Shown piece after piece: positions 6,132 to 54,719 of a stretch of 64,000 bases of DNA. The first letter of the stretch is position 1. Every line of letters starts with the position of its first letter. The notes beneath the pieces were generated by a model, which made no database searches, was not told where the DNA came from, and saw nothing but the letters and a program-made list of their open reading frames with translations. The position numbers were made by a program, and so were the translations under genes. This DNA comes from a virus, in the IMG/VR virus record IMGVR_UViG_3300037424_001177, positions 95,229 to 159,228 of that record; one strand, 5' to 3'.

Positions 6132-7913
6132 ATGCCGAGTACCGCTGACCCTAGTACTATTACGACCGGCCCTGGAAAGCTTCACAACGATGTTGTGAAC
6201 GCTGCGGCGGACTTGTACGCACAGACCAGCTCGGCTGTTCTAGGTGTATTGGTAGGCGTCCTCAATCAACCGTTGGCGGCCCCTAGTGTAACGGCCTCGT
6301 TTGCTTCAGGTTCTTCAGCTGACGCAACGCTGCTGTTGGTCAACACAACTTACGGGCCTTTCTACGTTGGGGATTCCGGTGGAGACCAATTGCAGGACCT
6401 GTTTCGTGTTGTCAATGCCGCTGACGACACAGAAATTTTTGATCCGGTCAGTCGAACTTACGTTGCAGTTACTGCCATTTCTCCAGCAGCAATTGGTGCG
6501 GGGTTCTTTGCAGCGAACTTGACGCTGACATTCACGCCCTCAATCCCACAGAACGTCACTTACAAGGTCTACTACGGAAAGCAAGCTTTGGTCGGTAGTT
6601 TGCCGATCGAGTTGGCAAGTCACCCAACGATACGTCGTTCGCCCGACCGTGTACGTTTTCCTGAGTACCTGCGTAGTGGTATTGCACCGACGGTCATCGT
6701 CAATACAGCAACAGATCTGGGTCTTTATTTAGACCCCTACAAATCACACTGGCGTGCCCATCTACGAGGCGCGACTGTGCACCCCACGACCGGCGCGTCC
6801 AGTGGCTCTACCGGATACGTCTACGTTGGACGAAAAAAGAACGTTGCTGACGCCAACGACCGAGGACTTGTCGGTCACCAAGCGGCCGGATTCCTAGCCG
6901 TCTACGAAAAAGACATCGCATCAGGAACTCTTGGCGGTGCAACTGCGTGGACTAGGGTCAATGCTTCTTCAGTTGGGACGGTTTCGGCAACTGATGAATT
7001 GGAGCTGGCGGCCTCAGACTACTGGTACCTTTCAGGACCGTTCCGCACGGCGGTCAGAGTGGGTGTTGATCTCGCTGAAATCACGTACACGACGGGCACC
7101 AAGATCGGAACAAGGGAAGTCTACATCATACGTTCCCTTGACCCCCTGAACTCGAGACAATGCTCCGTGAATGTGTTGGGCGGGGAGTCTTCAGGCTCTG
7201 CTGTGCTTCCGGATGTTGGGGAGTCCGTGAACATTCGTTGGATTCGCACAGGGTTCTTTGCTGGGGGTGACACGGATCAATTTGGGGACGCAGAAAATCG
7301 ACTAAATGGTTTCGGGCATTTGGTGCCAGGCGCCATAACCGCGACGCCGACTTCCGAGATTGCCCAAACCCCACCGTTCTGGTCAGCTGGAACGCTTGAC
7401 ACAGCTCGTGGGGGGACAAGCGATTGGAACTTGCGTGCTTTGGAGTGGGGCGCGTACACTGAGCAAGGGGCTGCCGTAACTGATCTCGGACGCAAGACCG
7501 TCAAAGGTGAGCTTTGGGGTGACGGATCTATTGAAAGTCGTGGAGGTCGAGTTCGAGGCCTCTTGAGCAGCCGATCACAATCTACGATTGCCATTGGCTC
7601 CACACAGACTCAGACTTTTGACCCGAGAGTCGTCAGCACGATCTATTTCGGGTTCACGGGCGCCAGCAGTTTTGTGCTGACGGTCGCTCTGGACGGGACG
7701 TACACTCCTGAGTTTGGGGACCGCATCACAATCTATGTTGCTTACAACGTCACCGCTGGTAGCTTCGGTGAGTTGTCGTCTGTTGTTTGGCCCTTAGACT
7801 TTCGGTTTTCCGGAACTGACGCCACAACGCCAAGTTCGGCAGGGACGGTGTTGAAGTTCGAGGCTCAGTACATACTTGAGTGGTTCTTGACGAGAACTGA
7901 TTACGGACCGTAA
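6132..7913 (+). CDS. Putative tail/fibre structural protein
   Basis: 593 aa, G/T/S/A-rich beta-type composition, inside structural operon. Confidence 0.5.
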   Translation: MPSTADPSTITTGPGKLHNDVVNAAADLYAQTSSAVLGVLVGVLNQPLAAPSVTASFASGSSADATLLLVNTTYGPFYVGDSGGDQLQDLFRVVNAADDTEIFDPVSRTYVAVTAISPAAIGAGFFAANLTLTFTPSIPQNVTYKVYYGKQALVGSLPIELASHPTIRRSPDRVRFPEYLRSGIAPTVIVNTATDLGLYLDPYKSHWRAHLRGATVHPTTGASSGSTGYVYVGRKKNVADANDRGLVGHQAAGFLAVYEKDIASGTLGGATAWTRVNASSVGTVSATDELELAASDYWYLSGPFRTAVRVGVDLAEITYTTGTKIGTREVYIIRSLDPLNSRQCSVNVLGGESSGSAVLPDVGESVNIRWIRTGFFAGGDTDQFGDAENRLNGFGHLVPGAITATPTSEIAQTPPFWSAGTLDTARGGTSDWNLRALEWGAYTEQGAAVTDLGRKTVKGELWGDGSIESRGGRVRGLLSSRSQSTIAIGSTQTQTFDPRVVSTIYFGFTGASSFVLTVALDGTYTPEFGDRITIYVAYNVTAGSFGELSSVVWPLDFRFSGTDATTPSSAGTVLKFEAQYILEWFLTRTDYGP

Positions 7914-13855: not shown

Positions 13856-13876
13856 TTTCAATTTATCCGCTGTCCT
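13856..13876 (-). repeat. Partial repeat copy (A2), 3' 21 nt
   Basis: TTTCAATTTATCCGCTGTCCT identical to 13953-13973. Confidence 0.9.
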
Positions 13877-13877
13877 T

Positions 13878-13952
13878 GTCACCGGGGCCCGATAAAGCGT
13901 CTGAGGAGTCACCACGTCAGGACCGTCTATCCGATATTGGTACTCGTTCCAG
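13878..13952 (-). repeat. 75-bp diverged duplicate of the 3' end of the Cys-rich lipoprotein gene (spacer-like segment)
   Basis: 67/75 identical to 14052-14126, ungapped. Confidence 0.95.
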
Positions 13953-14032
13953 TTTCAATTTATCCGCTGTCCTAAGACCAACGGAAAGACCAATTTAGCA
14001 GAGTGGTCTTTCCGTTGCAAGTGTTGAACACT
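13952..14032 (-). CRISPR. Promoter + single CRISPR-like repeat cassette (A1), heading a mini-array
   Basis: TTGCAA(14020-14015)-17 nt-TAAATT(13997-13992) with TG extension, then CTTTCCGTTGGTCTTAGGACAGCGGATAAATTGAAAC (37 nt, hairpin + ATTGAAAC end). CRISPR nature is inferred. Confidence 0.6.
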
Positions 14033-27887: not shown

Positions 27888-27895
27888 CGCCATGG

Positions 27896-27981
27896 TTTCA
27901 ATTTATCCCCCATCTAACGAAGACGACGGAAAACTCAACTTAGCAGAAGTAATCTTTCGTCACAAGCAACTCCTTACTTTC
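27896..27981 (-). mobile_element. Promoter + single CRISPR-like repeat cassette (B), 11-bp flanking duplication
   Basis: TGACGCCATGG at 27885-27895 and 27982-27992; TTGTGA-17 nt-TAAGTT; TTCCGTCGTCTTCGTTAGATGGGGGATAAATTGAAAC. Confidence 0.75.
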
Positions 27982-43862: not shown

Positions 43863-43933
43863 TTGTCTTCTTCCACGCAGGCATGATAGCTTACCTGTTC
43901 CGACAACTCAAATGGCTGCGAATAAATTGAAAC
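43863..43933 (+). repeat. Degenerate promoter + CRISPR-like repeat cassette (D)
   Basis: TTGTCT-18 nt-(TGa)TAGCTT then GTTCCGACAACTCAAATGGCTGCGAATAAATTGAAAC. Confidence 0.6.
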
Positions 43934-44472
43934 AATGGGGGACACTCTCGGAGAAACAACTCCAAATCTTGCGACCGTATCTCCGAGGTCGTGTCGTACA
44001 CGACCTCGGAGCCGGCAACTTGGCTCTCGCCAACGTCTTGCTGGACCATGGCGCCAAGAGAGTCATCGCGATCGATGAAAAGCAACCTCGTCCGCCGAAC
44101 GACAATGCACGGATCGAATTCGTACGTACGAAGTTTGAGAACTACAAAGCCAACATCAGGACGGCGTTCGTGTCTTGGCCGACTAACACTGTGTACTGGC
44201 CCGACCACAACACACAGCCGGCACTCGTGCATTTGATCAGTTGTGCGAGTAGGATCATCTACTTGGGCAAAAACACGAGCGGCGTGTTGTGTGGAACCCC
44301 TGCCTTGTATAGGTTCCTGTCGAAACGGGAAGTCCTGGAACACTGGCCGGAGGACGCCAACACGCTTGTCGTCTACGGACCGACAAGCGTGGACTCTATA
44401 GACAGACCCCTACTCCTTGTCGAGCGCGCGGGTATCGACCACACAAGAGTCTACCATTCCGATTTTACTTGA
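43912..44472 (+). CDS. SAM-dependent methyltransferase-fold protein
   Basis: VHDLGAG, VIAID, FVSWP, IYLG. Confidence 0.6.
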   Translation: MAANKLKQWGTLSEKQLQILRPYLRGRVVHDLGAGNLALANVLLDHGAKRVIAIDEKQPRPPNDNARIEFVRTKFENYKANIRTAFVSWPTNTVYWPDHNTQPALVHLISCASRIIYLGKNTSGVLCGTPALYRFLSKREVLEHWPEDANTLVVYGPTSVDSIDRPLLLVERAGIDHTRVYHSDFT

Positions 44473-44962: not shown

Positions 44963-45034
44963 GGAGGTGTAGCTAAATGGTAATGCAACGTGCTTTTAAC
45001 ACGTAGATTGCAGGTTCGAGCCCTGTCACCTCCA
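44963..45034 (+). tRNA. trnK: tRNA-Lys(TTT)
   Basis: Cloverleaf, loop CTTTTAA. Confidence 0.9.
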
Positions 45035-45040
45035 CTTGAT

Positions 45041-45113
45041 GGGTTGCTAACTCAACAGGTAGAGTAGCAGGTTCTTAACCTGAAAGTTCCGAGTTCGATT
45101 CTCGGGCAGCCCA
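45041..45113 (+). tRNA. trnK: tRNA-Lys(CTT)
   Basis: Cloverleaf, loop TTCTTAA. Confidence 0.9.
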
Positions 45114-45122
45114 CAGTTCGTA

Positions 45123-45196
45123 TTCCAGGATCGGCTAATTGGTAGGCCACGTCGCTCTGAACGACGGAACGCTGGTTCGATTCCAGCTCCTGGAAC
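45123..45196 (+). tRNA. trnQ: tRNA-Gln(CTG)
   Basis: Cloverleaf, loop CTCTGAA. Confidence 0.88.
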
Positions 45197-45312
45197 TGAG
45201 ACTTCAGGTCTCTTCAAAAGTCCTTTCGAGGACCTTGCTTTTTGACAATTCGTGTTTTTTCACTCGTGTGGCAGATCGGTGCCCACCCAGGTACCGATCT
45301 GCCCACAAACTT

Positions 45313-45388
45313 GTCCCATTAGTCTAGTGGCTCAGGACGCTGCCTTCTCAAGGCGGTAGCGACGGTTCGAATCCGTCATGGGACGCCA
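45313..45388 (+). tRNA. trnE: tRNA-Glu(CTC)
   Basis: Cloverleaf, loop TTCTCAA, CCA end. Confidence 0.92.
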
Positions 45389-45389
45389 T

Positions 45390-45473
45390 TGTAGGGTCGC
45401 GTAACGGTAGCGCACTCGGCTGTTAACCGAGCGAGGAAAACCTCATTTGCAGGTTCGAGTCCTGCCCCTACAG
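45390..45473 (+). tRNA. trnN: tRNA-Asn(GTT) with long variable arm
   Basis: Loop CTGTTAA; extra GAGG-AAAA-CCTC arm. Confidence 0.85.
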
Positions 45474-45917
45474 CTAGACCTTGCCCTTCTTCCAAACGAG
45501 TTTTTGTGCCGCCTCCCGAATGATGCGGAGCGTTGTGTCAGCTTGCTCTATCCGACCGTCGGACCGGAGTTCTTGCTCGGCCCGTTTCAAGTAGTTGACT
45601 TGGGCTTGAGCCAGCTTGGCCCGAACGTTAGCTCCTGAGTCATCCGTTCTGATTTGTGTTTCCTGCAAAATGCTCTTGGGCAGGACAGTGACGACCGTGT
45701 CGTACTTTTTGAGAACGGTTTCAAGCTGCGGCATTTCGTAGGCTACGAGATCCAAATTCTCCCCGAACCCTCGTGTAGTCGGGATGATCGATCCGTCGGC
45801 CGTTTCCTCGATTCTCCACTTAGTTTTGTTCCAGAGGAGCGAGAACCTACTTCCGTTGACTGCGTTGTCCCAACGAGCTGTTTTATAGCGCTGAACGACG
45901 CGGGCCGGGCTGTCCAT
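45474..45917 (-). CDS. Hypothetical protein with RVxxRY N-terminal tag
   Basis: MDSPARVVQRYKTA; AAGGAAG RBS. Confidence 0.6.
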   Translation of the reverse strand: MDSPARVVQRYKTARWDNAVNGSRFSLLWNKTKWRIEETADGSIIPTTRGFGENLDLVAYEMPQLETVLKKYDTVVTVLPKSILQETQIRTDDSGANVRAKLAQAQVNYLKRAEQELRSDGRIEQADTTLRIIREAAQKLVWKKGKV

Positions 45918-45944
45918 ACTTCCTTGGTTTTGACAAGTATTTTC

Positions 45945-46020
45945 GCGGGTGTCACCTCAATGGCGAGGTCGTTGCCTTCCAAGCAAATGTCGGCCGGTTC
46001 GATTCCGGTCACCCGCTCCA
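45945..46020 (+). tRNA. trnG: tRNA-Gly(TCC)
   Basis: Loop CTTCCAA, TCCA end. Confidence 0.9.
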
Positions 46021-46096
46021 AAATGTAAAATATTGACTTGATCGTGTTTTGGATCGTAGGTTTCCATTTTGGGGAAAACCAAATGAGATACCACAC

Positions 46097-47353
46097 ATGA
46101 AAACCATCCAAATCACACTCGCCGTCGCCCTACTTTTTGCGTGCTCAGGCGCACCTAACCAACGAGTCCCACAAGATGTCGAGGTGGTCACACAGGCACT
46201 CAGCGACTACGCTATCACTGCCACGGTGATCGACAATCCTGCGGCCGGGCTCACACGGACCAAGCACACCGTCCAGCAGGGGACAGATCCTCTGAACGTG
46301 TTTGGCGTGACCCGCGTCAAGTCTTCGTACTCACACAAGCCGGTCATTCTTCACGGACCATTTGGATACGACTACCGATGGTACGAGCTCACAGAGACGA
46401 CCAACTACCGGAAGTCCTTTCTAGGCTCCCTCGCGACGTTAGGGTTCGATGTTTGGGTGATCGACGACAGGTTGTCGAAGCAAGCCCCAGGGACTTGCGA
46501 AGTCACTGGTTGCCTAGCGATGGGCGACTGGACTGTGCAGACTAGGGTCGACGACGCAGAGTTCGTGAGAGGCCTTGTTCTTGGTGCCTACGGCTTGAAC
46601 CAGAAGGTCGTGATCGGGGGCTACGTCGGTGGCGCCATGTTCGCACAAGCGACCGTCAACGCGTTCCCTGACCACTACGCGGGCTTGTTCCTTTGGGAGG
46701 GCTCGATGGTGGCGGATTCCGCCCAACAGGCGTTCTCGGCACCCAACTGTGGGCTCCTACAGTTCGTCACCTCTCTCGGGATCTACTCTGATCCGACTCC
46801 CCAAATCTTCGCGTTACTGTTCCAACTGAAGCAAGCTGACCCAACAGGGATCTCGCCAGTGCCTGGGATCCCTGGACTTGAGTTCCTAGCTGCCAAACTC
46901 GCTGAGCTGGGGATCGTGAACGCGACGAATGATCAGGTCTTCTACGTGGTCAGCACGCAACATTTGAACAATCCCAACTGGCCGACGCCAAGCTTTCACT
47001 TCCTCGCCGGTGACTCAACCGGTGTCGACTTCGCTTCAGAGCCTCGCTACCTCAAGATTGGTGGCATCGTGGACGCCTATGCCAGCCTGACCACAATCCG
47101 GGACATCACGTGCGGCCTGGCAGGCGATACGACGTACACGGACAACCTAGCGGCCTTCGAGGGCAAAGTCTTGGCGCTTGGTGCGCATGGCGGGTTCGGT
47201 GCTGAGCTTGAGTTCACGGAAGCCGCTTACGAAAACGCGGACTACGACGTGTTCGTGAACGAGGACTTCGGCGAGAGCGATCGCTTCTTCAATCCACATC
47301 GCTTCTTGCTCGCAGACGTTCCCTTTGCTATTTGGGCATCGACAGTTTTTTAA
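46097..47353 (+). CDS. Alpha/beta-hydrolase-fold lipoprotein
   Basis: Lipobox LLFA-C; ILHG, GFDVW.ID.R; elbow reads GYVGG. Confidence 0.65.
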   Translation: MKTIQITLAVALLFACSGAPNQRVPQDVEVVTQALSDYAITATVIDNPAAGLTRTKHTVQQGTDPLNVFGVTRVKSSYSHKPVILHGPFGYDYRWYELTETTNYRKSFLGSLATLGFDVWVIDDRLSKQAPGTCEVTGCLAMGDWTVQTRVDDAEFVRGLVLGAYGLNQKVVIGGYVGGAMFAQATVNAFPDHYAGLFLWEGSMVADSAQQAFSAPNCGLLQFVTSLGIYSDPTPQIFALLFQLKQADPTGISPVPGIPGLEFLAAKLAELGIVNATNDQVFYVVSTQHLNNPNWPTPSFHFLAGDSTGVDFASEPRYLKIGGIVDAYASLTTIRDITCGLAGDTTYTDNLAAFEGKVLALGAHGGFGAELEFTEAAYENADYDVFVNEDFGESDRFFNPHRFLLADVPFAIWASTVF

Positions 47354-47406
47354 CCGTCAGACGTTGAGAGGCTACCAGGTTGCCCTACCGTTAGGGCTAA
47401 TTGACC

Positions 47407-47865
47407 CTAGTCGACGATCCCCATCAGGAAAGCTTCCTCTTCCGACTCCTCGACAACAATCACAGGCTGAGTGTTTGGGATCCCATAGTCCAGGGTCCCA
47501 GCTCTCAGCTCCGTGAGGAGCTGAATTCTCCCCATGTGGTTGCCGAGAAGATCTCGGATTCGCCGCGCCTCAGGCGTTCCGCGTTCGAGGGCATTCTCTT
47601 TGGCTACTTTAGTCAACATCACCCAAGTCGTGGCAGGACCGTCCCCGTCGGCTGTCGTGAATCCCACGTCTCGGTCCTTGACTGAATTGATGGGAAGAAA
47701 GCACTCTTTGGGTCCGAGCCTGTGCTGACGCACAGCTTCCAGAAGCTCGAAAATGTTGTCGTATTTCAATTTTATCCGCCACCCAATGAAGGCGATGGAA
47801 AACAACTTAGCAGAAGGAATCTTGTGTCACAAGTGTTCTCACTCGAAAATGTTGTCGTAGATCAT
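47407..47865 (-). CDS. Hypothetical protein interrupted after codon 8 by cassette C (may restart at an in-frame TTG in the cassette)
   Basis: Removing cassette plus one duplication gives MIYDNIFELLEAV..., with ATG 1 nt after the upstream gene's TAG. Confidence 0.6.
47764..47841 (-). mobile_element. Promoter + single CRISPR-like repeat cassette (C), 18-bp flanking duplication
   Basis: CTCGAAAATGTTGTCGTA at 47746-47763 and 47842-47859; TTGTGA-17 nt-TAAGTT; TTCCATCGCCTTCATTGGGTGGCGGATAAAATTGAAA. Confidence 0.78.
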
Positions 47866-47866
47866 C

Positions 47867-48175
47867 CTAGCGTGGGCCCGGTAGCTTAGGCGCCTTCCGA
47901 GAGTAGTCGCGAGTGTCTTGGGCCGACCAAGTCTGGTTAACGATGCCCGCAGCGTGGTAGAGAGCTGAGGATACCCTCATTTCTTGACCCATCTTTTCCG
48001 CAGCGGTTCCAAGACTCCAAACCGCTGAAAACAAGAGACGCTTCGGGTTGCCGCTACCTTTAGCGATCCTCTTGAGAGCTTCGATCGCCGCTTGAATGTC
48101 TTCGACAGCTTCGGCCGACGGCTTCGCGGCCTCTTTCAAGGAGCGGAACCGGGCTACGACTCGTTTGGCTTCCAT
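47867..48175 (-). CDS. Small protein with RVxxRF tag
   Basis: MEAKRVVARFRSLKEAA; GAGGT RBS. Confidence 0.65.
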   Translation of the reverse strand: MEAKRVVARFRSLKEAAKPSAEAVEDIQAAIEALKRIAKGSGNPKRLLFSAVWSLGTAAEKMGQEMRVSSALYHAAGIVNQTWSAQDTRDYSRKAPKLPGPR

Positions 48176-48477
48176 GTCTTTAGTACCTCAAAATGTCCCA
48201 TCAGATCTTCTTCGCGTACCAGTAGGCCTTCACAAAGTCCCCGAGGTCGGAGCCACTCCACAGCAGATTGCCACTCGGTGCGCGGGGTGTAGAACCTGGG
48301 TCCCTTCGCGCTGACCACAACCGTCGTGTTTTTCTCGCCCTTCAAAATCTCGTCGTTCGAATTCAAGCCGTAACCGTACACAGCTAATTGTTTTTCAGCC
48401 AAGGCCATTTTTTGGGGAGCCAGCTTGGTAGCGGCAACCAATGCCTGAAATCGGGCTACGACTCGTTTGGCTTCCAT
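48154..48477 (-). CDS. Small protein with RVxxRF tag
   Basis: MEAKRVVARFQALVAA; first 26 nt identical to next gene. Confidence 0.6.
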   Translation of the reverse strand: MEAKRVVARFQALVAATKLAPQKMALAEKQLAVYGYGLNSNDEILKGEKNTTVVVSAKGPRFYTPRTEWQSAVEWLRPRGLCEGLLVREEDLMGHFEVLKTWKPNES

Positions 48478-48479
48478 AC

Positions 48480-49079
48480 CTAGCACTTCCGATAAACACT
48501 ATGGACGAGGCCCTCAAGCATCGACGCCTTGAAGTCTGCGTTCCGGACAAGTATGGAGGTCTTTTCTGGGTGAGCGGCATCGAATCGCACGTAGTCGCCT
48601 TCCTTGCGGTAGTACCTGACGCTGATCTCATCACCAACGCGTAAGCAAACCAAGCACCCAGAAGTAATGAAGGCACCGCGTCGTTGAACGAGCAAATAGT
48701 CTCCATCTAGAATCCCTGATCTTTCGAGTGCGTCTCCGCGCATCAGGAACCCGACGACAGGCTTGTTGATCATTGAGGAACTGACTTGGATAGTATCGAC
48801 AACGTTCCCTTCTTCGAAAGTTCGCGAATAAACTTTGACCGTTTGAGTTTCCGACACTGTGGTGCTTTCAATGAGCTTGATCCCGCGACTCGCGCCTTGA
48901 CGTGTACGCTGGATGTGGCCTTTGCGTTCGAGTGCGTCCAGGTGTTGACTGATGCCGTGCGTGGAGTGTAAATCTAAAGCGACACAAAGTTCTCGCAGGG
49001 AAGGCGGGTAACCGAATTCCCTGATACGATCCCGAACGACGTTCAGGACCATTTCTTGTCGCCTGGTGAGTCCGATCAT
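48480..49079 (-). CDS. lexA: LexA-family repressor lacking autocleavage residues
   Basis: LT.RQ, GYPPS.REL, HL.ALERKG.I, SRGI; S24-like domain GDAL/GI.DGD. Confidence 0.85.
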   Translation of the reverse strand: MIGLTRRQEMVLNVVRDRIREFGYPPSLRELCVALDLHSTHGISQHLDALERKGHIQRTRQGASRGIKLIESTTVSETQTVKVYSRTFEEGNVVDTIQVSSSMINKPVVGFLMRGDALERSGILDGDYLLVQRRGAFITSGCLVCLRVGDEISVRYYRKEGDYVRFDAAHPEKTSILVRNADFKASMLEGLVHSVYRKC

Positions 49080-49113
49080 GCGATATCGTCAGGTGTAACA
49101 CCGTGTTTCAAAT

Positions 49114-49184
49114 GCTGCGTGACGCGATTGGATCGCGACCTCTCTGTCTAAGAGGCGAAACGGGTTCGATTCCCGTACGCAGCG
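49114..49184 (+). tRNA. trnD: tRNA-Asp(GTC)
   Basis: Loop CTGTCTA, GTTCGA. Confidence 0.82.
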
Positions 49185-49186
49185 CC

Positions 49187-49279
49187 GGCCTAGGATCCCG
49201 GGGTGGCGACCGGGTGTGATATTGCTGACGTGCGCACGGTAGGCAGTAGAGCAGGGCGTAGAAGCTACGCAGGGCCACA
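49187..49279 (+). ncRNA. Putative structured, tRNA-sized RNA
   Basis: Closing GGCC/GGCC stem plus three hairpins; no canonical tRNA motifs. Confidence 0.35.
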
Positions 49280-49384
49280 ATATTTTACGTGATTCCCAGG
49301 TTTTGGGAGCAAAAACAGGAGGTATCTATGATGTTGATGATTTTCTGAATACCGGCCCTTGGGGGAGGGCCCCGGTCGGTGTAA

Positions 49385-49792
49385 GTGGCGTACATGCTCA
49401 CAACAGCTGACCAGTTGGTACTGCACGGACTAGGAGACTACGTTCTCCAAAGCCAGTGGATGGCGAACGAGAAGTCAAAACAATCACTCGTAGCCTTCGT
49501 GCACGCGCTCACCTACACGTTGCCGTTCTTTTTGGTGAGCCAGAATCCGTCGGCACTTTTTGCGATCTGCGGCACACACTTCGTGATCGATCGATGGCGC
49601 CTCGCCAAGTACGTGTGTTGGACCAAAAACTTCTTGGCACCACCGGGCTCCAATCGCCCTTGGTCTGAGTGTCGCAGTACGGGCTACCCAGACGACAGCC
49701 CTCCTTGGTTGAGTGTGTGGTTGTTCATCATTGCAGACAACCTCATGCACGTGGTGTGTAACGGACTGGCTCTCAAGTATCTCAACTTTTAG
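49385..49792 (+). CDS. DUF3307-family membrane protein
   Basis: H.LGDYVLQS.WMA..K, HAL.Y, THFVID, DN.MH. Confidence 0.8.
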   Translation: MAYMLTTADQLVLHGLGDYVLQSQWMANEKSKQSLVAFVHALTYTLPFFLVSQNPSALFAICGTHFVIDRWRLAKYVCWTKNFLAPPGSNRPWSECRSTGYPDDSPPWLSVWLFIIADNLMHVVCNGLALKYLNF

Positions 49793-49861
49793 AGGTGAGG
49801 CTAAGGTAGCCGGGGAGCCTCCAAAACTCCTGCCGAGACGGTTCAATTCCGTCCACCTCTG
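49791..49861 (+). tRNA. trnW: tRNA-Trp(CCA)
   Basis: Loop CTCCAAA, GTTCAA. Confidence 0.8.
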
Positions 49862-49862
49862 C

Positions 49863-50093
49863 TTAGGGACACAACTCCAATCTTTTGGCACAAGACAGGT
49901 CTTCGTTGTGCGGACCTTCACACACGTCTTGTAAACGGTACTTGAATTGTTCTGCTCGTACAACACAGCGCACGTCGACCTTGTCTTCTTGGGCTCGGTA
50001 GGTGTGGATGCAATAGGCCACAATGCCGGCATCGGCAAGGAGGACGAGGCCCCACAACATGAGCGTCAGGGTCTTTGGGCTGACAATGGGCAT
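49863..50093 (-). CDS. Small membrane-anchored Cys protein
   Basis: N-terminal TM, Cys-rich tail. Confidence 0.4.
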   Translation of the reverse strand: MPIVSPKTLTLMLWGLVLLADAGIVAYCIHTYRAQEDKVDVRCVVRAEQFKYRLQDVCEGPHNEDLSCAKRLELCP

Positions 50094-50115
50094 GACAAAT
50101 TGTAGCACAAGTTTC

Positions 50116-50188
50116 GGTGCTCGACGGTCGGGTTGACCTGATTCGTCTGATAAGCGGATCGTGCAGAGTTCAAGTCTCTGGAGCACTA
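50116..50188 (+). tRNA. trnI: tRNA-Ile(GAT)
   Basis: Loop CTGATAA, GTTCAA; atypical D arm. Confidence 0.75.
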
Positions 50189-50227
50189 CTACTGGAGGTC
50201 ATCGCCTTGCCGCCACGCACTGTCTAC

Positions 50228-50614
50228 TTACAGTTTCACGAGTCCGTCGAGCATCTGCCGAGTCGAAATCTCGTTTCGCCAGTATTGAAGCAAGATCACC
50301 CTGTTCAAGTTGACGAAGTCGATGACCTGCTTTTTCAGCTTGCCGGGAAGAGTGCCGATAACCCTCGGAGGTTTTGTGATCGTGACCGAAGCCGCGTCCG
50401 ACAACCCCTCTTTGGTGATTTTCGTGCCCGGAATGATCTTGACCCTAGGACCGTGCTGACTCTTGGTTCCGACAAACTCACCGGAGGATACCCAAATAAC
50501 CGCATCCGCCACGCCGGTGTCAACCGGAGGAAGGTTGGACATCGCTTCGAGCAGGAATCGAGCGACGATCTTCTTAGGGTTGGGCTTACTTTGTACTGGT
50601 TTCTTGGCGGCCAT
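50228..50614 (-). CDS. DUF4160-like protein with KIxxRF tag
   Basis: KKIVARFLLEA then MSNL...TG...IWVS...HGPRVK...F+.LN...+L.YW. Confidence 0.6.
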   Translation of the reverse strand: MAAKKPVQSKPNPKKIVARFLLEAMSNLPPVDTGVADAVIWVSSGEFVGTKSQHGPRVKIIPGTKITKEGLSDAASVTITKPPRVIGTLPGKLKKQVIDFVNLNRVILLQYWRNEISTRQMLDGLVKL

Positions 50615-50677
50615 CGCGTCCTTGTAGGATCACACACTTTGAGCTGGTGAGCTAGCTCATTTTCATCTTCTCTCAGT

Positions 50678-51418
50678 TCACGTGGACGACGTGTCGGGAT
50701 GGTAGAAATCTCCAAGAGCCTGCAAGTAGATGTCGTGGTGCTCTGTGTCGAGTAACGCCTTGTCGTAGAATGTGATGCTCGCAACGTCGGCTTTCAAGAA
50801 GTTACCCATACCCCAAGGCCAACCACAGGATGCGCCGACACGAAAGTGTCCGTATTCGCCACCTGTTGGCGTCGCAGTGATGTGGTCGATCCAGTTGTCA
50901 CATGTAACGAGCTTGCCATTCACGTAGAAGTTGTTGATCTCTACTCCCGGTTTGTTCGGCCACATGCTGCGTGTCCAACCGAGTACGCAAGGCAGCGACG
51001 GCAAGATGGTTTTAGCCTTGGTAATTGAGTTGGTCCCCATCCCGTATTCAACGAACATCCCCAATTCGTTTTGGCCGACTTCAAAATGGTATTGTGTATT
51101 GGTCGCCTCGACTTCGCCGAGACCTGCGTGTGACACCAGGCACTGTTTGCGAGACCGATTGTGGTTTTTGATCAGACAAGCGAACGCACAGTTTGTTGCC
51201 CGATTCAAATCCGGGATCATGTTCGGGATCCAGAGACATGTGTCCCCGCCAAACCTAAACCAAGTGATCCCGCCGTCGTCGACGTATTGTTCTTTTCCGG
51301 TCTCGACTACGAGGTCTCTTGGTAGGTCTTTACGTCGACCACTAGTATCGACAAGTGATCCGTTCAGGACGTTGAGCACAGGCTCGTGACTGTTGTCGAT
51401 GTAGCGAATTCGACCCAC
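50678..51418 (-). CDS. Divergent LamG-like paralog
   Basis: L.DTSG, LVVETG.E.Y, LVSHAG.GE.EATN..Y, FYVNG, TPTGG..G.FRVG shared with the genes at 1-2779. Confidence 0.65.
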   Translation of the reverse strand: MGRIRYIDNSHEPVLNVLNGSLVDTSGRRKDLPRDLVVETGKEQYVDDGGITWFRFGGDTCLWIPNMIPDLNRATNCAFACLIKNHNRSRKQCLVSHAGLGEVEATNTQYHFEVGQNELGMFVEYGMGTNSITKAKTILPSLPCVLGWTRSMWPNKPGVEINNFYVNGKLVTCDNWIDHITATPTGGEYGHFRVGASCGWPWGMGNFLKADVASITFYDKALLDTEHHDIYLQALGDFYHPDTSST

Positions 51419-51450
51419 CGCCGCATTTTAACACAACTAATGACAGCGTG

Positions 51451-51891
51451 TCAAACCGTTGTGTCCATGCTCTTTTCGAATTCGGAAACGAACGTTTTCA
51501 ACTCCGAAACGGTTTTTCGTAGACCGCGCTCGTCTTTTTTCTTGATCACACCTTCAATCTTGGAAGCGATATTTTCCAAGTCACGTTTCAACAGCGGTGC
51601 ATCGGCTTGAAGTGCTTCCCAGTCAGGTTCAGTGAACGCAGAGGTTCGATCATAACTGTACATTTTGCGGACCCTTTCTACCGGCCTCAAATCCCTGATT
51701 AGTAGCCAGCGGTGGGTGCCCGAGACGTGAAGTCCTCTTGACTTAGCCTCTACAGTTATCTGATTTATCTGCTCTTTTGTGTACCCGTCAACGTCTATTG
51801 TTACTTCGCTCTTTCCTGGCTTCACGCTGTCTAAAATCCGGTCCAAGAGTGTGACCTGTCTTCCTCCGCCCGCGGCGTTGATTTGCGTCAT
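51451..51891 (-). CDS. Fused pair of small proteins; second starts at 51663 with MYSYDR tag
   Basis: Near-identical leaders TAGAAAGG(A/G)TC(T/C)GCAAAATG precede both ATGs, in frame. Confidence 0.55.
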   Translation of the reverse strand: MTQINAAGGGRQVTLLDRILDSVKPGKSEVTIDVDGYTKEQINQITVEAKSRGLHVSGTHRWLLIRDLRPVERVRKMYSYDRTSAFTEPDWEALQADAPLLKRDLENIASKIEGVIKKKDERGLRKTVSELKTFVSEFEKSMDTTV

Positions 51892-51936
51892 TTTGCAGAT
51901 CCTTTCTACTGAGGGTCTAGCCAATAACAAATTTTT

Positions 51937-52011
51937 CGGGGATAAGGCTCAAGGTGGGCCACTAGTCTTGGGAACTAGCGTCGGCGGGTTCGATTCCCGC
52001 ATCCCCGACCA
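51937..52011 (+). tRNA. trnP: tRNA-Pro(TGG)
   Basis: Loop CTTGGGA, ACCA end. Confidence 0.9.
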
Positions 52012-52019
52012 ACACCTTT

Positions 52020-52095
52020 GCCGGCGTAGCACTCTAGGGAGCGCACTTGCCTCGTAAGCAAGACCAGATCGGTTCGAATCCGTTCGCCGGCTCCA
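52020..52095 (+). tRNA. trnT: tRNA-Thr(CGT)
   Basis: Loop CTCGTAA, TCCA end. Confidence 0.9.
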
Positions 52096-52097
52096 CT

Positions 52098-52176
52098 GCT
52101 CCGTTCGTCTACGTTGGTTTAGGACAACTGCCCTTTCAAGGCGGAGAAGCGGGATCGTCGCCCGCACGGAGCACCA
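52098..52176 (+). tRNA. trnE: tRNA-Glu(TTC)
   Basis: Loop CTTTCAA, ACCA end; T-loop ATCGTCG. Confidence 0.85.
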
Positions 52177-52187
52177 AACATTTTCTT

Positions 52188-52263
52188 GGGGCCGTAGCTC
52201 AAATGGGAGAGCACTTGTCTTGCACACAAGGGGTTGAGAGTTCGAGTCTCTCCGGTTCCACCA
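52188..52263 (+). tRNA. trnA: tRNA-Ala(TGC)
   Basis: Loop CTTGCAC, G3:U70, ACCA. Confidence 0.92.
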
Positions 52264-52265
52264 AT

Positions 52266-52338
52266 GCCCCTGTAGCGCAATGGATAGCGCAGCACGCTTC
52301 GAACGTGTAGGTTGGGAGTTCGAGTCTCTCCAGGGGCG
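52266..52338 (+). tRNA. trnR: tRNA-Arg(TCG)
   Basis: Loop CTTCGAA. Confidence 0.9.
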
Positions 52339-52343
52339 CTTTA

Positions 52344-52430
52344 GTCGCTGTGGCGGAATTTGGCAGACGCACTTGCCTTAGAAGCAAGCGCCCTTGTGGT
52401 GTGGAGGTTCAAGTCCTCTCAGCGACACCA
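52344..52430 (+). tRNA. trnL: tRNA-Leu(TAG)
   Basis: Loop CTTAGAA, variable arm, ACCA. Confidence 0.92.
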
Positions 52431-52434
52431 ACTT

Positions 52435-52510
52435 TGCGGGGTAGGCTGACTGGTGAGGCACCGGTCCTACAAACCGGCTTAGGTTGGGGTTCGATTCCCA
52501 CACCCCGTAC
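52435..52510 (+). tRNA. trnV: tRNA-Val(TAC), atypical
   Basis: Loop CCTACAA (C33), C discriminator. Confidence 0.65.
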
Positions 52511-52583
52511 GAGCCTGATCCATCCGGTCGGTGGGCGCGATCTGCAAAATCGTGTGCACTGGGTTCAACTCCCAGCAGGCTCT
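52511..52583 (+). tRNA. trnC: tRNA-Cys(GCA)
   Basis: Loop CTGCAAA, U discriminator. Confidence 0.8.
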
Positions 52584-52832
52584 CTAGTTCTTTGGCGGCC
52601 TCAGGTCCTCGACTTTGGTCAAGGGTCCAATAAACTTCTTCATCGTTTCTTGGAGATCGTCTTCCGACTCTTTTGCAAACAGTAGGACGGAAGGCCCTCC
52701 TTCGATACCCAATTGTGTTCGTGTGTCGATTTTGATGGGTTGGTCCTCGAGCAGCTTCTCACAATTCATGCGAGACAGTCCGAGGATAATCAATGTCTGC
52801 CCATCGTCAGTACCCGCAACAGCTTTGATCAT
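52584..52832 (-). CDS. Hypothetical protein
   Basis: 82-aa ATG ORF between tRNAs. Confidence 0.5.
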   Translation of the reverse strand: MIKAVAGTDDGQTLIILGLSRMNCEKLLEDQPIKIDTRTQLGIEGGPSVLLFAKESEDDLQETMKKFIGPLTKVEDLRPPKN

Positions 52833-52854
52833 GTCGACTATCGTACGTCTTTCC

Positions 52855-52970
52855 GCCCTCGTAGCACAACTGGATTGTGCACCCGGCTACCCTTCCTTCA
52901 ATTCCCGCCCGGTTTCTACTGTTACTTGTCCGGACAATCAACAAAAATCTGTACTCCGAGGGGGACACCA
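52855..52970 (+). pseudogene. Disrupted tRNA-Arg(ACG)
   Basis: Good 5' half GCCCTCGTAGCACAACTGGATTGTGCACCCGGCTAC stops in the anticodon; CGAGGG..ACCA about 65 nt later. Confidence 0.55.
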
Positions 52971-52991
52971 AATCTTGGTGTCATTGTCGGC

Positions 52992-53312
52992 ATGGCCGAA
53001 ACTGCCCTCACGCTACCGGATCGTGAAGAGATGCTTGCACGTCTACTGAAGATCAACGATCTATCGCATTTTCGGCAGTATCTTTATCCACGGTTGTTGA
53101 CAAGTGCCGGTAAACAAATAACGGCTCCAAGCGGTGTCGCCATGATGTTGGTACTTGCTATGTACGACTACGTGAAAGAGTGTGGATTACCGTCTATCGC
53201 GACCCGTGCGTTGTACTTGCAGGCTCCTGTGTTTGTCGATGCGCTAGTCAGTGACGTTGAGCTAATCAACGCAACAAAAGAGTTTCTCAGGGAAGCTCTT
53301 AGACGAAACTAG
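52992..53312 (+). CDS. Hypothetical protein
   Basis: ATG at 52992 inferred. Confidence 0.45.
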   Translation: MAETALTLPDREEMLARLLKINDLSHFRQYLYPRLLTSAGKQITAPSGVAMMLVLAMYDYVKECGLPSIATRALYLQAPVFVDALVSDVELINATKEFLREALRRN

Positions 53313-53790
53313 GACCCGGTCCTTACGTCGGGTTTTCCGAGTCAGGTCAGAGCATCACAACTGGTTCTCCGGAGAGAAGGCGCGGAGCGCTCCGGGGAGT
53401 CTCGTTGGAAGTTGCGGTGTTCCTGGTACGACGCGGGTTGACAGTTACCGTGCCTGAGCAAGCTGTCGTCGGCGAACAAACCCGCTGCCTCGTGGTGGTT
53501 CTTGAGCTTTGGGTTTGTTGTAGGAAGGGCGGCCTGGTCCCTTGCCAAAACCAGGCACGTATAGCAAAGTGGAAAGTCGAAATGGTGAAGCATCGCAGGA
53601 TCACTAACAAGCCGCTGACGGCGGCAAGGAGATCCTGTGCACCACAAACGCAAGAAACGAAAAAACGCTCGAGGCGGTTGTCTGTTTTGTAAGCCTCACA
53701 AGGCAACCGGGTCGAAAGACTCGTGGAATCATCAGACGAGACAAGAACAACGGTCTCGTGTCTCAATGAGCGAACAGCTCAAGGTCTTTT

Positions 53791-53870
53791 GGAGAGGTGG
53801 CTAATGGTGGCAAACCGTTTTGAAAACGGTCGCGGTAATTCCGTAGCGGGTTCGATTCCTGTCCTCTCCG
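53791..53870 (+). tRNA. trnS: tRNA-Ser(TGA)
   Basis: Loop TTTGAAA, variable arm, G discriminator. Confidence 0.85.
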
Positions 53871-53880
53871 CAAAATTAAT

Positions 53881-53966
53881 GGAGGTTGATGATCACTGGG
53901 TGATCCGCAGTTCGCTAAACTGATGGCACTTTCGGGTGTGGCGTTCGATTCGTCCGACCTCCGCCA
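53881..53966 (+). tRNA. trnS: tRNA-Ser(GCT)
   Basis: Loop TCGCTAA (C33), variable arm, GCCA. Confidence 0.8.
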
Positions 53967-53972
53967 ATTTTT

Positions 53973-54046
53973 TGGGGTGTCGTCTAAAGGTAGGACGGCT
54001 GGCTTTGGACCAGTTGATCCAGGTTCGATCCCTGGTGCCCCAACCA
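53973..54046 (+). tRNA. trnQ: tRNA-Gln(TTG)
   Basis: Loop CTTTGGA, ACCA. Confidence 0.9.
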
Positions 54047-54048
54047 AT

Positions 54049-54119
54049 GGCGAGCTTGGTCCAGGGAGGACCAGTGCTTTCATACGGCGCCGGAGAGGGT
54101 TCGAGTCCCTCGCTCGCTA
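54049..54119 (+). tRNA. trnM: tRNA-Met(CAT) (Met or Ile2)
   Basis: Loop TTCATAC, GTTCGA. Confidence 0.8.
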
Positions 54120-54125
54120 CAATGT

Positions 54126-54440
54126 TCAGTTGTCGTCGATGTTCACGAATGCTGTGATCTTGAGGCTCTTCAACCCATCATTCTGGGCCCGTAGGATGAC
54201 CGTTCCGGAGCCGACACCGTTGCTCTTTTCGGTGTCTTTGCCGGCCAACTTGTAGAAGAAGTCCACGTGAACAGTGTCGCGGTGTGTAGTGGCCGGTCTG
54301 AACACCAAAGACCCCTTCTCGAGTTCGTAGTGCTTGGCACACATCTTCTCAACTTGTTCGGTCGTGAGATCCAGGCTGAACTTGTTGAAGATTTGAACTT
54401 TGTCCACAGCCGCAGTCTTGCGTCGGTCGTAGGAATACAT
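54126..54440 (-). CDS. Small protein with MYSYDR tag
   Basis: MYSYDRRKTAA; ATG at 54440. Confidence 0.55.
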   Translation of the reverse strand: MYSYDRRKTAAVDKVQIFNKFSLDLTTEQVEKMCAKHYELEKGSLVFRPATTHRDTVHVDFFYKLAGKDTEKSNGVGSGTVILRAQNDGLKSLKITAFVNIDDN

Positions 54441-54475
54441 AAGCCTTGTCTCTTGAAGGGCCACAAATGAATTTT

Positions 54476-54552
54476 GTCCCAGCAGCACGACTGGACCGTG
54501 CGGCGAGCTTCTAACTCGACGGCTGGTGGTTCGAATCCATCCTGGGACGCCA
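54476..54552 (+). tRNA. trnR: tRNA-Arg(TCT)
   Basis: Loop CTTCTAA, GCCA. Confidence 0.88.
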
Positions 54553-54560
54553 AATGATCT

Positions 54561-54636
54561 GGACTGTGAGCTAGTACGGTTATAGCAGGCTGCTGAAAAC
54601 GGCCAGAACCCCGTTCGACTCGGGGACAGTCCACCA
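54561..54636 (+). tRNA. trnF: tRNA-Phe(GAA)
   Basis: Loop CTGAAAA, ACCA. Confidence 0.88.
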
Positions 54637-54642
54637 ATTTAT

Positions 54643-54719
54643 GGTGAGCGTAGCCTTCTGGTGAGGGCACTTGGATGTGGCCCAAGTTTAGGCGGGTTCA
54701 ATTCCCGTCGCTCACCCCA
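54643..54719 (+). tRNA. trnH: tRNA-His(GTG)
   Basis: G-1, loop ATGTGGC, CCCA end. Confidence 0.88.

Follow-up and report, generated by a model that had tools for sequence, protein, structure and literature searches.

A mobile cassette at the start of a huge-phage gene, and the start codon that it probably donates

Introduction

How can a gene be kept when an insertion has cut its start codon and first eight codons off from the rest of its reading frame? The question is raised by a minus-strand locus, hereafter locus C, in a 64,000-nucleotide stretch of viral DNA (the window), which makes up the final 64 kb of an IMG/VR record of 159,228 bp and 33% CheckV completeness. The gene content of the window (21 tRNA genes, a family-A DNA polymerase and a LexA-like gene) indicates that the record, which originates from a sediment metagenome, is a fragment of a huge phage. 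The nearest Atlas clusters of the LexA-like protein, in Planctomycetota and Acidobacteriota, might hint at the host and are taken as a lead only. The 21 tRNA genes lie on the plus strand (44963–54719) in four clusters, with minus-strand protein genes, including the split-gene locus, in between.

A close relative, G001, was found via the split gene and its whole record compared; it is 301,550 bp long, with direct terminal repeats, and its plus strand corresponds to the minus strand of the window. As developed below, we consider it probable (roughly 0.7) that a mobile cassette inserted in the gene start and donates an in-phase TTG, the gene being retained.

Results

Anatomy of the split gene start

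The features of locus C are the following.

47867–48175, minus strand: upstream gene of 102 aa, with its stop TAG at 47869–47867 and an orthologue in G001.
47839–47865, minus strand: remnant of the presumed ancestral start, composed of ATG (47865–47863), ATC and six codons (47859–47842), then TGA (47841–47839); encodes the 8-residue MIYDNIFE.
47842–47859, unstranded: first copy of an exact 18-nt duplication (family D19), on the side of the old ATG.
47764–47841, minus strand: cassette C, 78 nt (nhmmer E 3e-18), one of five full copies in the record.
47804–47832, minus strand: promoter-like block, a candidate promoter kept in copies A–D, with TTGTGA (47832–47827), 17 nt and TGC-TAAGTT, the −10-like box being at 47809–47804.
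47775–47799, minus strand: hairpin of about 9–10 bp with a 5-nt loop and a Shine-Dalgarno (SD)-like GGCGGA in its 3′ arm.
47764–47774, minus strand: A/U-rich tail past the stem, 11 nt, holding TTG (47769–47767) and AAA (47766–47764); with T 47763 it reads ATTGAAAT.
47746–47763, unstranded: second copy of the duplication, exact over 18 nt, equal to codons 3–8 of the presumed working gene.
47407–47769, minus strand: presumed working gene, 120 aa, from TTG 47769 to the stop at 47409–47407, encoding a small alpha/beta protein.

As the initial annotation had described, the upstream TAG is followed, after a single base (G, 47866), by ATG ATC, and the gene is split after codon 8 by a TGA that lies in the cassette. 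The in-frame insertion of 78 + 18 = 96 nt, with TTG-AAA taking the place of the first two codons, is also borne out by the sequence: the 18-nt direct repeat is exact and its copies are 96 nt apart start-to-start, with a chance expectation of about 9e-5 such pairs in 64 kb. The TTG AAA of the cassette (47769–47764) directly abuts TAC GAC and shares the frame of the ORF that runs to 47407. A second in-frame TGA (47829–47827) lies past the first, and only two in-frame start candidates follow it: TTG 47805, which opens the longest ORF (132 aa, also on record as predicted protein P0001), and TTG 47769 (120 aa). The arrangement is found again in a 7880-nt Logan contig, made by another assembler from the same source sample, which matches 47300–48300 without difference.

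The upstream gene belongs to a tandem of small paralogous genes (110 and 102 aa; window 47867–48486, minus strand), the first 22 codons or so of which are common to both (MEAKRVVARF...). These common codons form a 66-nt repeat with copies 302 nt apart; G001 and one contig of another sample have a single copy.

The uninterrupted gene start is ancestral

Homologues lacking the insert are found at four distant metagenome loci (51–57% amino acid identity), which all have an uninterrupted ATG-x-[Y/F]-D start. At three of them (L143–L145) the ATG overlaps the upstream stop (TGATG), and at the fourth (L146) the layout stop-G-ATG-x-Tyr-Asp is identical to that of the remnant at 47869–47863. Among 1.84 billion representative proteins, 31 matches were obtained, about 27 of which are small and begin with M-x-[YF]-[DE]-[DN]-[IV]-[FY]-E-L-L; read from TTG 47769, the working gene has this native N-terminus of the homologues (M-x-[YF]-[DE]-[DN]). 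The initial annotation would have been refuted by homologous proteins natively carrying the extension, but the N-terminal extension of the 132-aa ORF (14 residues, FSIAFIGWRIKLK) is absent from all of the approximately 27 homologue clusters, so that the refutation fails. Taken together, the outgroup layout, with its ATG at the upstream stop, and the extension-free homologues indicate that the gene formerly started at the ATG ATC remnant, the insertion being the derived state.

These comparisons also bear on the 132-aa protein (beginning with MFSIAF) as the real product, the cassette then being translated as its 14-residue extension. Although it corresponds to the longest ORF and to a predicted protein, we hold it to be highly improbable, as no homologue has the extension and G001 lacks that DNA altogether; in addition, TTG 47805 is located within the −10-like box with no SD ahead, and the extension is encoded by the promoter and hairpin blocks that are common to cassette copies outside genes. 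Gene callers would here add to the split gene 12 codons that are non-coding cassette DNA.

The gene is conserved in a sister phage behind the same TTG

The G001 gene is 90% identical at the amino acid level, and only 26 nt, which align to the 3′ arm and tail of the cassette, are found between its upstream stop and its codons His3-Asp4. This allele, in which 18 nt stand in place of 95 nt of locus C and the last approximately 20 nt of the cassette are kept, is also present on contigs from two further sediment samples. The same cassette TTG is, in G001, the first in-frame start after a stop and the sole possible one. As the junction between the cassette tail and codon 3 is common to both phages, the simplest history is a single insertion before their split followed by a deletion in the G001 line. 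This order of events rests on parsimony and is not thereby proven, the upstream genes of the outgroup loci being different ones.

The split gene and its G001 counterpart have a dN/dS of 0.058/0.420 = 0.14, a ratio covering the whole path between both phages. As judged from these substitutions, the gene has been under purifying selection since the split at dS 0.42, although such a whole-path value would also be compatible with a function lost only recently in this phage. That the gene could be inactivated here, by a recent insertion that has so far left the ORF undecayed, is nonetheless quite unlikely. A TTG start, a weak and possibly occluded SD and the loss of translational coupling are in its favor, but the cassette-gene junction common to G001 at dS 0.42 points to an old insertion, and the ORF is intact at a dN/dS of 0.14.

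In the AF2 model of the 120-aa protein (mean pLDDT 86.6), residues 1–10 are at pLDDT 96 and a helix spans residues 6–15; any later start would thus truncate the folded part. The shared junction, the sole start of G001, the purifying selection and the fold model all point to TTG 47769 as the working start, its use in this phage being deduced from them. The initial proposal that the cassette end supplies the start is thus strengthened by the outgroup loci with ATG at the stop, by the sole TTG of G001 and by the purifying selection. TTG is a weak start, and the SD-like GGCGGA inside the 3′ arm of the hairpin may be occluded; a clear SD is found in only about a third of the long ORFs of these phages.

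The identity of the product is less informative: it has no Pfam or PHROG family, its best Foldseek E-value is 0.26, and its best VIA-align hit (Z 4.2, SRP9/14-like chains) is too weak for naming the fold. Pfam families are likewise absent from the two genes upstream of cassette C and from the neighbors of copies A and B.

A last way of expressing the gene would be programmed ribosomal bypassing, with take-off at GAG-TGA (47844–47839), landing at GAG 47748–47746 and 96 nt skipped. The initial annotation had already ranked it as the less likely option, and we find it scarcely credible. The take-off and landing codons match and a stop follows the take-off codon, but this is an automatic consequence of the duplication; bypassing of the T4 gene 60 type also relies on a hairpin at take-off and on a signal in the nascent peptide. 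G001 has neither take-off site nor gap and yet keeps the gene; no helix is predicted over GAG-TGA, the nearest one being just downstream, and the fold of the region compared to shuffles gives a z of −0.18. The gap would be about twice that of T4 gene 60, which also counts against bypassing, and no such event is needed to explain expression of the gene.

The cassette belongs to a mobile family with a conserved hairpin

A profile search reveals five full cassette copies in the record, all on the minus strand, plus hairpin-and-tail fragments, and three full copies in G001. Those of the record are located as follows.

Window 13951–14026, 27894–27972 and 47765–47839, minus strand: full copies within the window.
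Record 75640–75720 (L147:640–720) and 7124–7197 (L148:624–697), minus strand: full copies upstream of the window.

Cassette C is 73–76% identical to copies B, D and G1_5. From 5′ to 3′, a full copy is composed of TTG-N3, 17 nt and TGC-TAA[AG]TT, then of a hairpin of about ten pairs, and finally of 11 nt ending in ATTGAAA, followed by C or T. The tail, which ends in ATTGAAAC, is 11 nt long in ten copies, copy C being one longer if T 47763 is counted. In an alignment of 11 copies, the hairpin has 10 pairs with 89% of cells paired, versus 30–52% when the partner is slid; compensatory changes are observed in 3 pairs, and covariation exceeds that of 498 out of 500 shuffles and of all slid controls. 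Depending on the copy, the loop has 5 to 11 nt. The frequent G-U pairs, which would be A-C on the opposite strand, indicate that the hairpin is strand-specific and hence most simply formed by RNA.

The initial annotation had credited the cassette with a promoter. A sigma-70 scan of 47300–48600 gives no promoter, the −10-like hexamer of the cassette fitting the consensus at 3 of 6 positions, and the promoter-like motif occurs at chance level outside cassettes and is thus not general in these phages; the cassette might be transcribed from this block, but this part of the proposal is not sustained by the scans. No terminator is detected in the cassette, whose hairpin has no T run behind it, and an Rfam scan of 47600–48000 (E up to 10) gives no match to the cassette. 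Beside these scans of locus C, a near-consensus sigma-70 promoter (TTGACG, 17 nt, TATCAT) is found directly behind cassette E (L148:540–625, minus strand; record 7040–7125). Behind this promoter comes a strong GC hairpin without ORF, 96% conserved in G001, and the two could possibly constitute a small RNA gene.

At the places of the copies located behind the polymerase gene and at 75.7 kb of the record (B and D), G001 has clean empty sites, each with one copy of the 10–11-nt and approximately 20-nt flank, respectively. Reciprocally, two G001 copies are absent from this record, where short unrelated filler is found in their place. Comparison of the two phages, in which the sites mostly differ, therefore indicates that the cassette moves or is exchanged. 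The duplications flanking the copies are of 10–11, 18, about 20 and 76 nt; the two copies of the 76-nt one are 89% alike, the downstream one being closer to the G001 allele (93%). A transposon-type MITE was considered and rejected, as terminal inverted repeats are absent (the cassette ends are unrelated) and the duplication lengths are not fixed. The variable duplications could reflect either staggered joins at insertion or scars of illegitimate recombination between cassette-bearing and cassette-free alleles.

Only some copies are connected to genes. The SD and start of a downstream gene are found at the cassette end at locus C (47769), in its G001 allele and at locus A, where a second cassette tail (13856–13876, 21 nt) is in phase with the real ORF of 132 codons that it opens. 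The tail TTG of copies B, D, E, G1_2 and G1_5 opens just 3–65 codons and no gene, and five of the nine strong copies have no gene following in their own direction. Several copies read GGAG-8 nt-ATG.

With respect to orientation, the strong copies are all on one genome strand, while 81% of the long-ORF length of the record is on the other; two weak copies are on that other strand. The profile-significant copies share this strand whatever the direction of the local genes, and four of them point into the 3′ end of an opposite-strand gene; replication-linked insertion may be a reason for the common strand. Finally, a degenerate cassette-like stretch is present on the plus strand of the window (43880–43935), with its tail forming codons 4–7 of a 186-aa ORF starting at 43912. 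It may be another cassette end built into a gene start, in a part of the locus that is not conserved in G001.

Discussion

Proposed history of locus C

In the ancestor, the ATG would have been located one base past the upstream stop, so that the two genes were translationally coupled. A mobile cassette of about 80 nt would then have entered 24 nt into the gene, with 18 nt of the gene 5′ end becoming duplicated around it. The old ATG would now yield only an 8-residue peptide, and the full protein would be made from the cassette TTG, which is in phase at the position of the old ATG, with residue 2 alone altered (Ile to Lys). A start at TTG 47769 would give the peptide MKYDNIFELLEAVR, versus forms beginning with MIYDNIFE or MFSIAF for the other starts. 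The mRNA could come from read-through of the upstream genes, plus the cassette's own transcript should the promoter-like block be active. A deletion that came later in the sister lineage would have taken the old start together with the duplicate and the cassette half bearing the promoter-like block, leaving the 3′ arm, the tail and the TTG as sole start.

The locus would thus offer a dated series of three states, i.e., a coupled ATG, an insertion with duplication and a trimmed remnant, in which the gene start is taken over and the gene stays alive. Such takeovers of gene starts by small regulatory cassettes would usually be invisible once the scar has decayed.

Could the cassette derive from a CRISPR repeat?

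A CRISPR-repeat origin of the cassette and a plain regulatory cassette have roughly equal odds, and both fit the main conclusion for locus C. The question bears on the spread of RNA mimics of CRISPR repeats in huge phages. It is raised by the cassette 3′ end: after the stem comes an 11-nt tail, the last 8 nt of which equal the conserved type I-C handle. Type I-C repeats of the same overall build exist in Acidobacteriota, whose arrays also contain the last eight bases of the overhang. Moreover, G001 itself encodes Cas5c, Cas8c, Cas7c and a helicase together with an array of at least 30 repeats.

The G001 type I-C locus (L010:2668–10900, 2.7–10.9 kb) comprises, besides Cas5c (L010:2668–3333), Cas8c and Cas7c, a 793-aa helicase without detected nuclease domain, and no Cas6; Cas1, Cas2 and Cas4 were not found among the seven ORFs of at least 130 aa on the strand of the array. 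In the array, 11 identical 36-nt repeats give way to about 19 degenerate ones, the stems of which covary. Its spacers have no match beyond 11–16 nt in either phage genome, and its leader has no likeness to the promoter block of the cassette. The array model also detects, at 39.9 bits, one solitary repeat of the G001 array type (L024:18020–18055, i.e., 298,020–298,055, minus strand), which is distant from the array in the linear record and about 12 kb away across the terminal repeat.

On this basis, locus C could be imagined as a CRISPR-coupled switch. The cassette would be a solitary type I-C-like repeat, the hairpin of which is cut at its 3′ base by a host or phage Cas5c, parting the SD-like arm from the TTG; the first 35 nt or so of the mRNA would perhaps be loaded into Cascade, so that gene expression, or the targeting of cassette-free rivals, would be tied to CRISPR status. 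The initial annotation had proposed a related scheme with cleavage by Cas6. With a I-C architecture, Cas5c would be the enzyme if any, not Cas6; a cut at the stem base, should it occur, would indeed part the SD-like arm from the TTG, in line with the removal of the ribosome-binding leader proposed initially. That five of the nine strong copies have no same-direction gene would also be more in keeping with a small-RNA unit than with a gene-start module.

We nevertheless regard this switch as unlikely. Arrays with the cassette repeat were not found in 185,579 species genomes (one per species), where 117 stretches have a single match apiece. In IMG/VR, pattern scans for the repeat and for arrays with its tail gave chance single matches, and 401 Acidobacteriota genomes yielded no array with this repeat. 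All cassette copies are solitary, the second tail of 21 nt at locus A being the exception. When the G001 array repeat is used as a covariance model, it misses every cassette (E up to 10), the repeat tail and stem being different; the loop length of 5–11 nt across copies and the missing Rfam match also argue against a CRISPR repeat, and the GGAG-8 nt-ATG tails of some copies are equally well explained as a translation start region. With no matching array and cassettes that the G001 repeat model misses, the link to CRISPR status put forward initially stays conjectural.

A further variant is very unlikely in our view: the cassette would be a cas-less mobile type I-C guide unit consisting of a promoter, one repeat and the DNA behind it as spacer. 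At locus C, one and the same RNA would then serve as mRNA or as Cascade guide against phages with the uninterrupted allele, the guide being made by Cas5c cleavage and Cascade loading and the gene start codon lying six bases into the handle. If true, a single RNA would tie the expression of the gene to homing or to competition between phages. Homing with the flank as guide and a I-C PAM was examined in this respect and rejected: the bases preceding the would-be protospacers are ATC (locus C, in its own ATG ATC remnant) and CGA (copy B, in the G001 empty site), which have no motif in common and are not the I-C motif TTC, a finding that also counts against the switch.

Comparison with known systems

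Correia elements of Neisseria and insertion sequences with outward promoters are small mobile DNAs that bring a promoter and an RNase-cleaved hairpin 5′ of a gene and thereby rewire its expression. Those elements end in inverted repeats and make short target duplications of fixed length, whereas the cassette lacks such ends and is flanked by duplications of 10–11, 18, about 20 or 76 nt.

The similarity to type I-C repeats is structural. These consist of a stem with an 11-nt 3′ overhang, and Cas5c, not Cas6, cuts them at the stem base (PMC8524198); a I-C repeat ending in the same 8 nt as the cassette tail has been described (PMC8406640). The cassette similarly has a GC-rich stem, an 11-nt overhang with the last 8 nt identical, and a I-C operon in the sister phage. 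It differs in being solitary, in having a 10-bp stem with a mismatch and loops of 5–11 nt (7 bp and 5 nt in I-C repeats), and in the first three bases of its tail.

Viral solitary repeat units and RNA anti-CRISPRs, or Racr (Camara-Wilpert et al., 2023, PMC10651486), have a single repeat-like hairpin with a predicted promoter within 250 bp upstream, no adjoining cas gene and several copies per phage, and are expressed as small RNAs that bind Cas proteins and inhibit interference. The cassette likewise is present in several copies and has a repeat-like hairpin, here directly behind a candidate promoter, with no Pfam-recognized cas gene beside copies A, B and C. However, Racr candidates were picked by their likeness to the real repeat of a known system, whereas no array matching the cassette was found. 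The cassette has no terminator bounding a small RNA, and two or three of its copies double as gene starts.

PeSLs (promoter-early stem-loops) of T4-type phages (Arbiol et al., 2010, PMC2839356; Comeau et al., 2014, PMC4122927) are composed of a promoter, a stem-loop, a Shine-Dalgarno sequence and the start codon of the gene that follows. Their presence varies between closely related phages and they are recombination sites (PMC2839356, PMC4122927). The cassette resembles them in having a stem-loop, in carrying an SD and a start codon at the 3′ end of some copies, and in its place, which differs between sister phages. It differs in several respects: (i) PeSL promoters have a strong sigma-70 consensus and a shown activity, whereas that of the cassette fails the consensus scan; (ii) PeSL stem-loops are terminators, while the cassette hairpin has no U-tract; (iii) most cassettes oppose the local genes and the strong copies are on one genome strand; and (iv) PeSLs are intergenic and flank ORFans, whereas cassette C interrupts a coding region, the 5′ end of the gene being duplicated around it. 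Locus C is not a new kind of system, and its reading as a mobile element donating a start codon is well supported.
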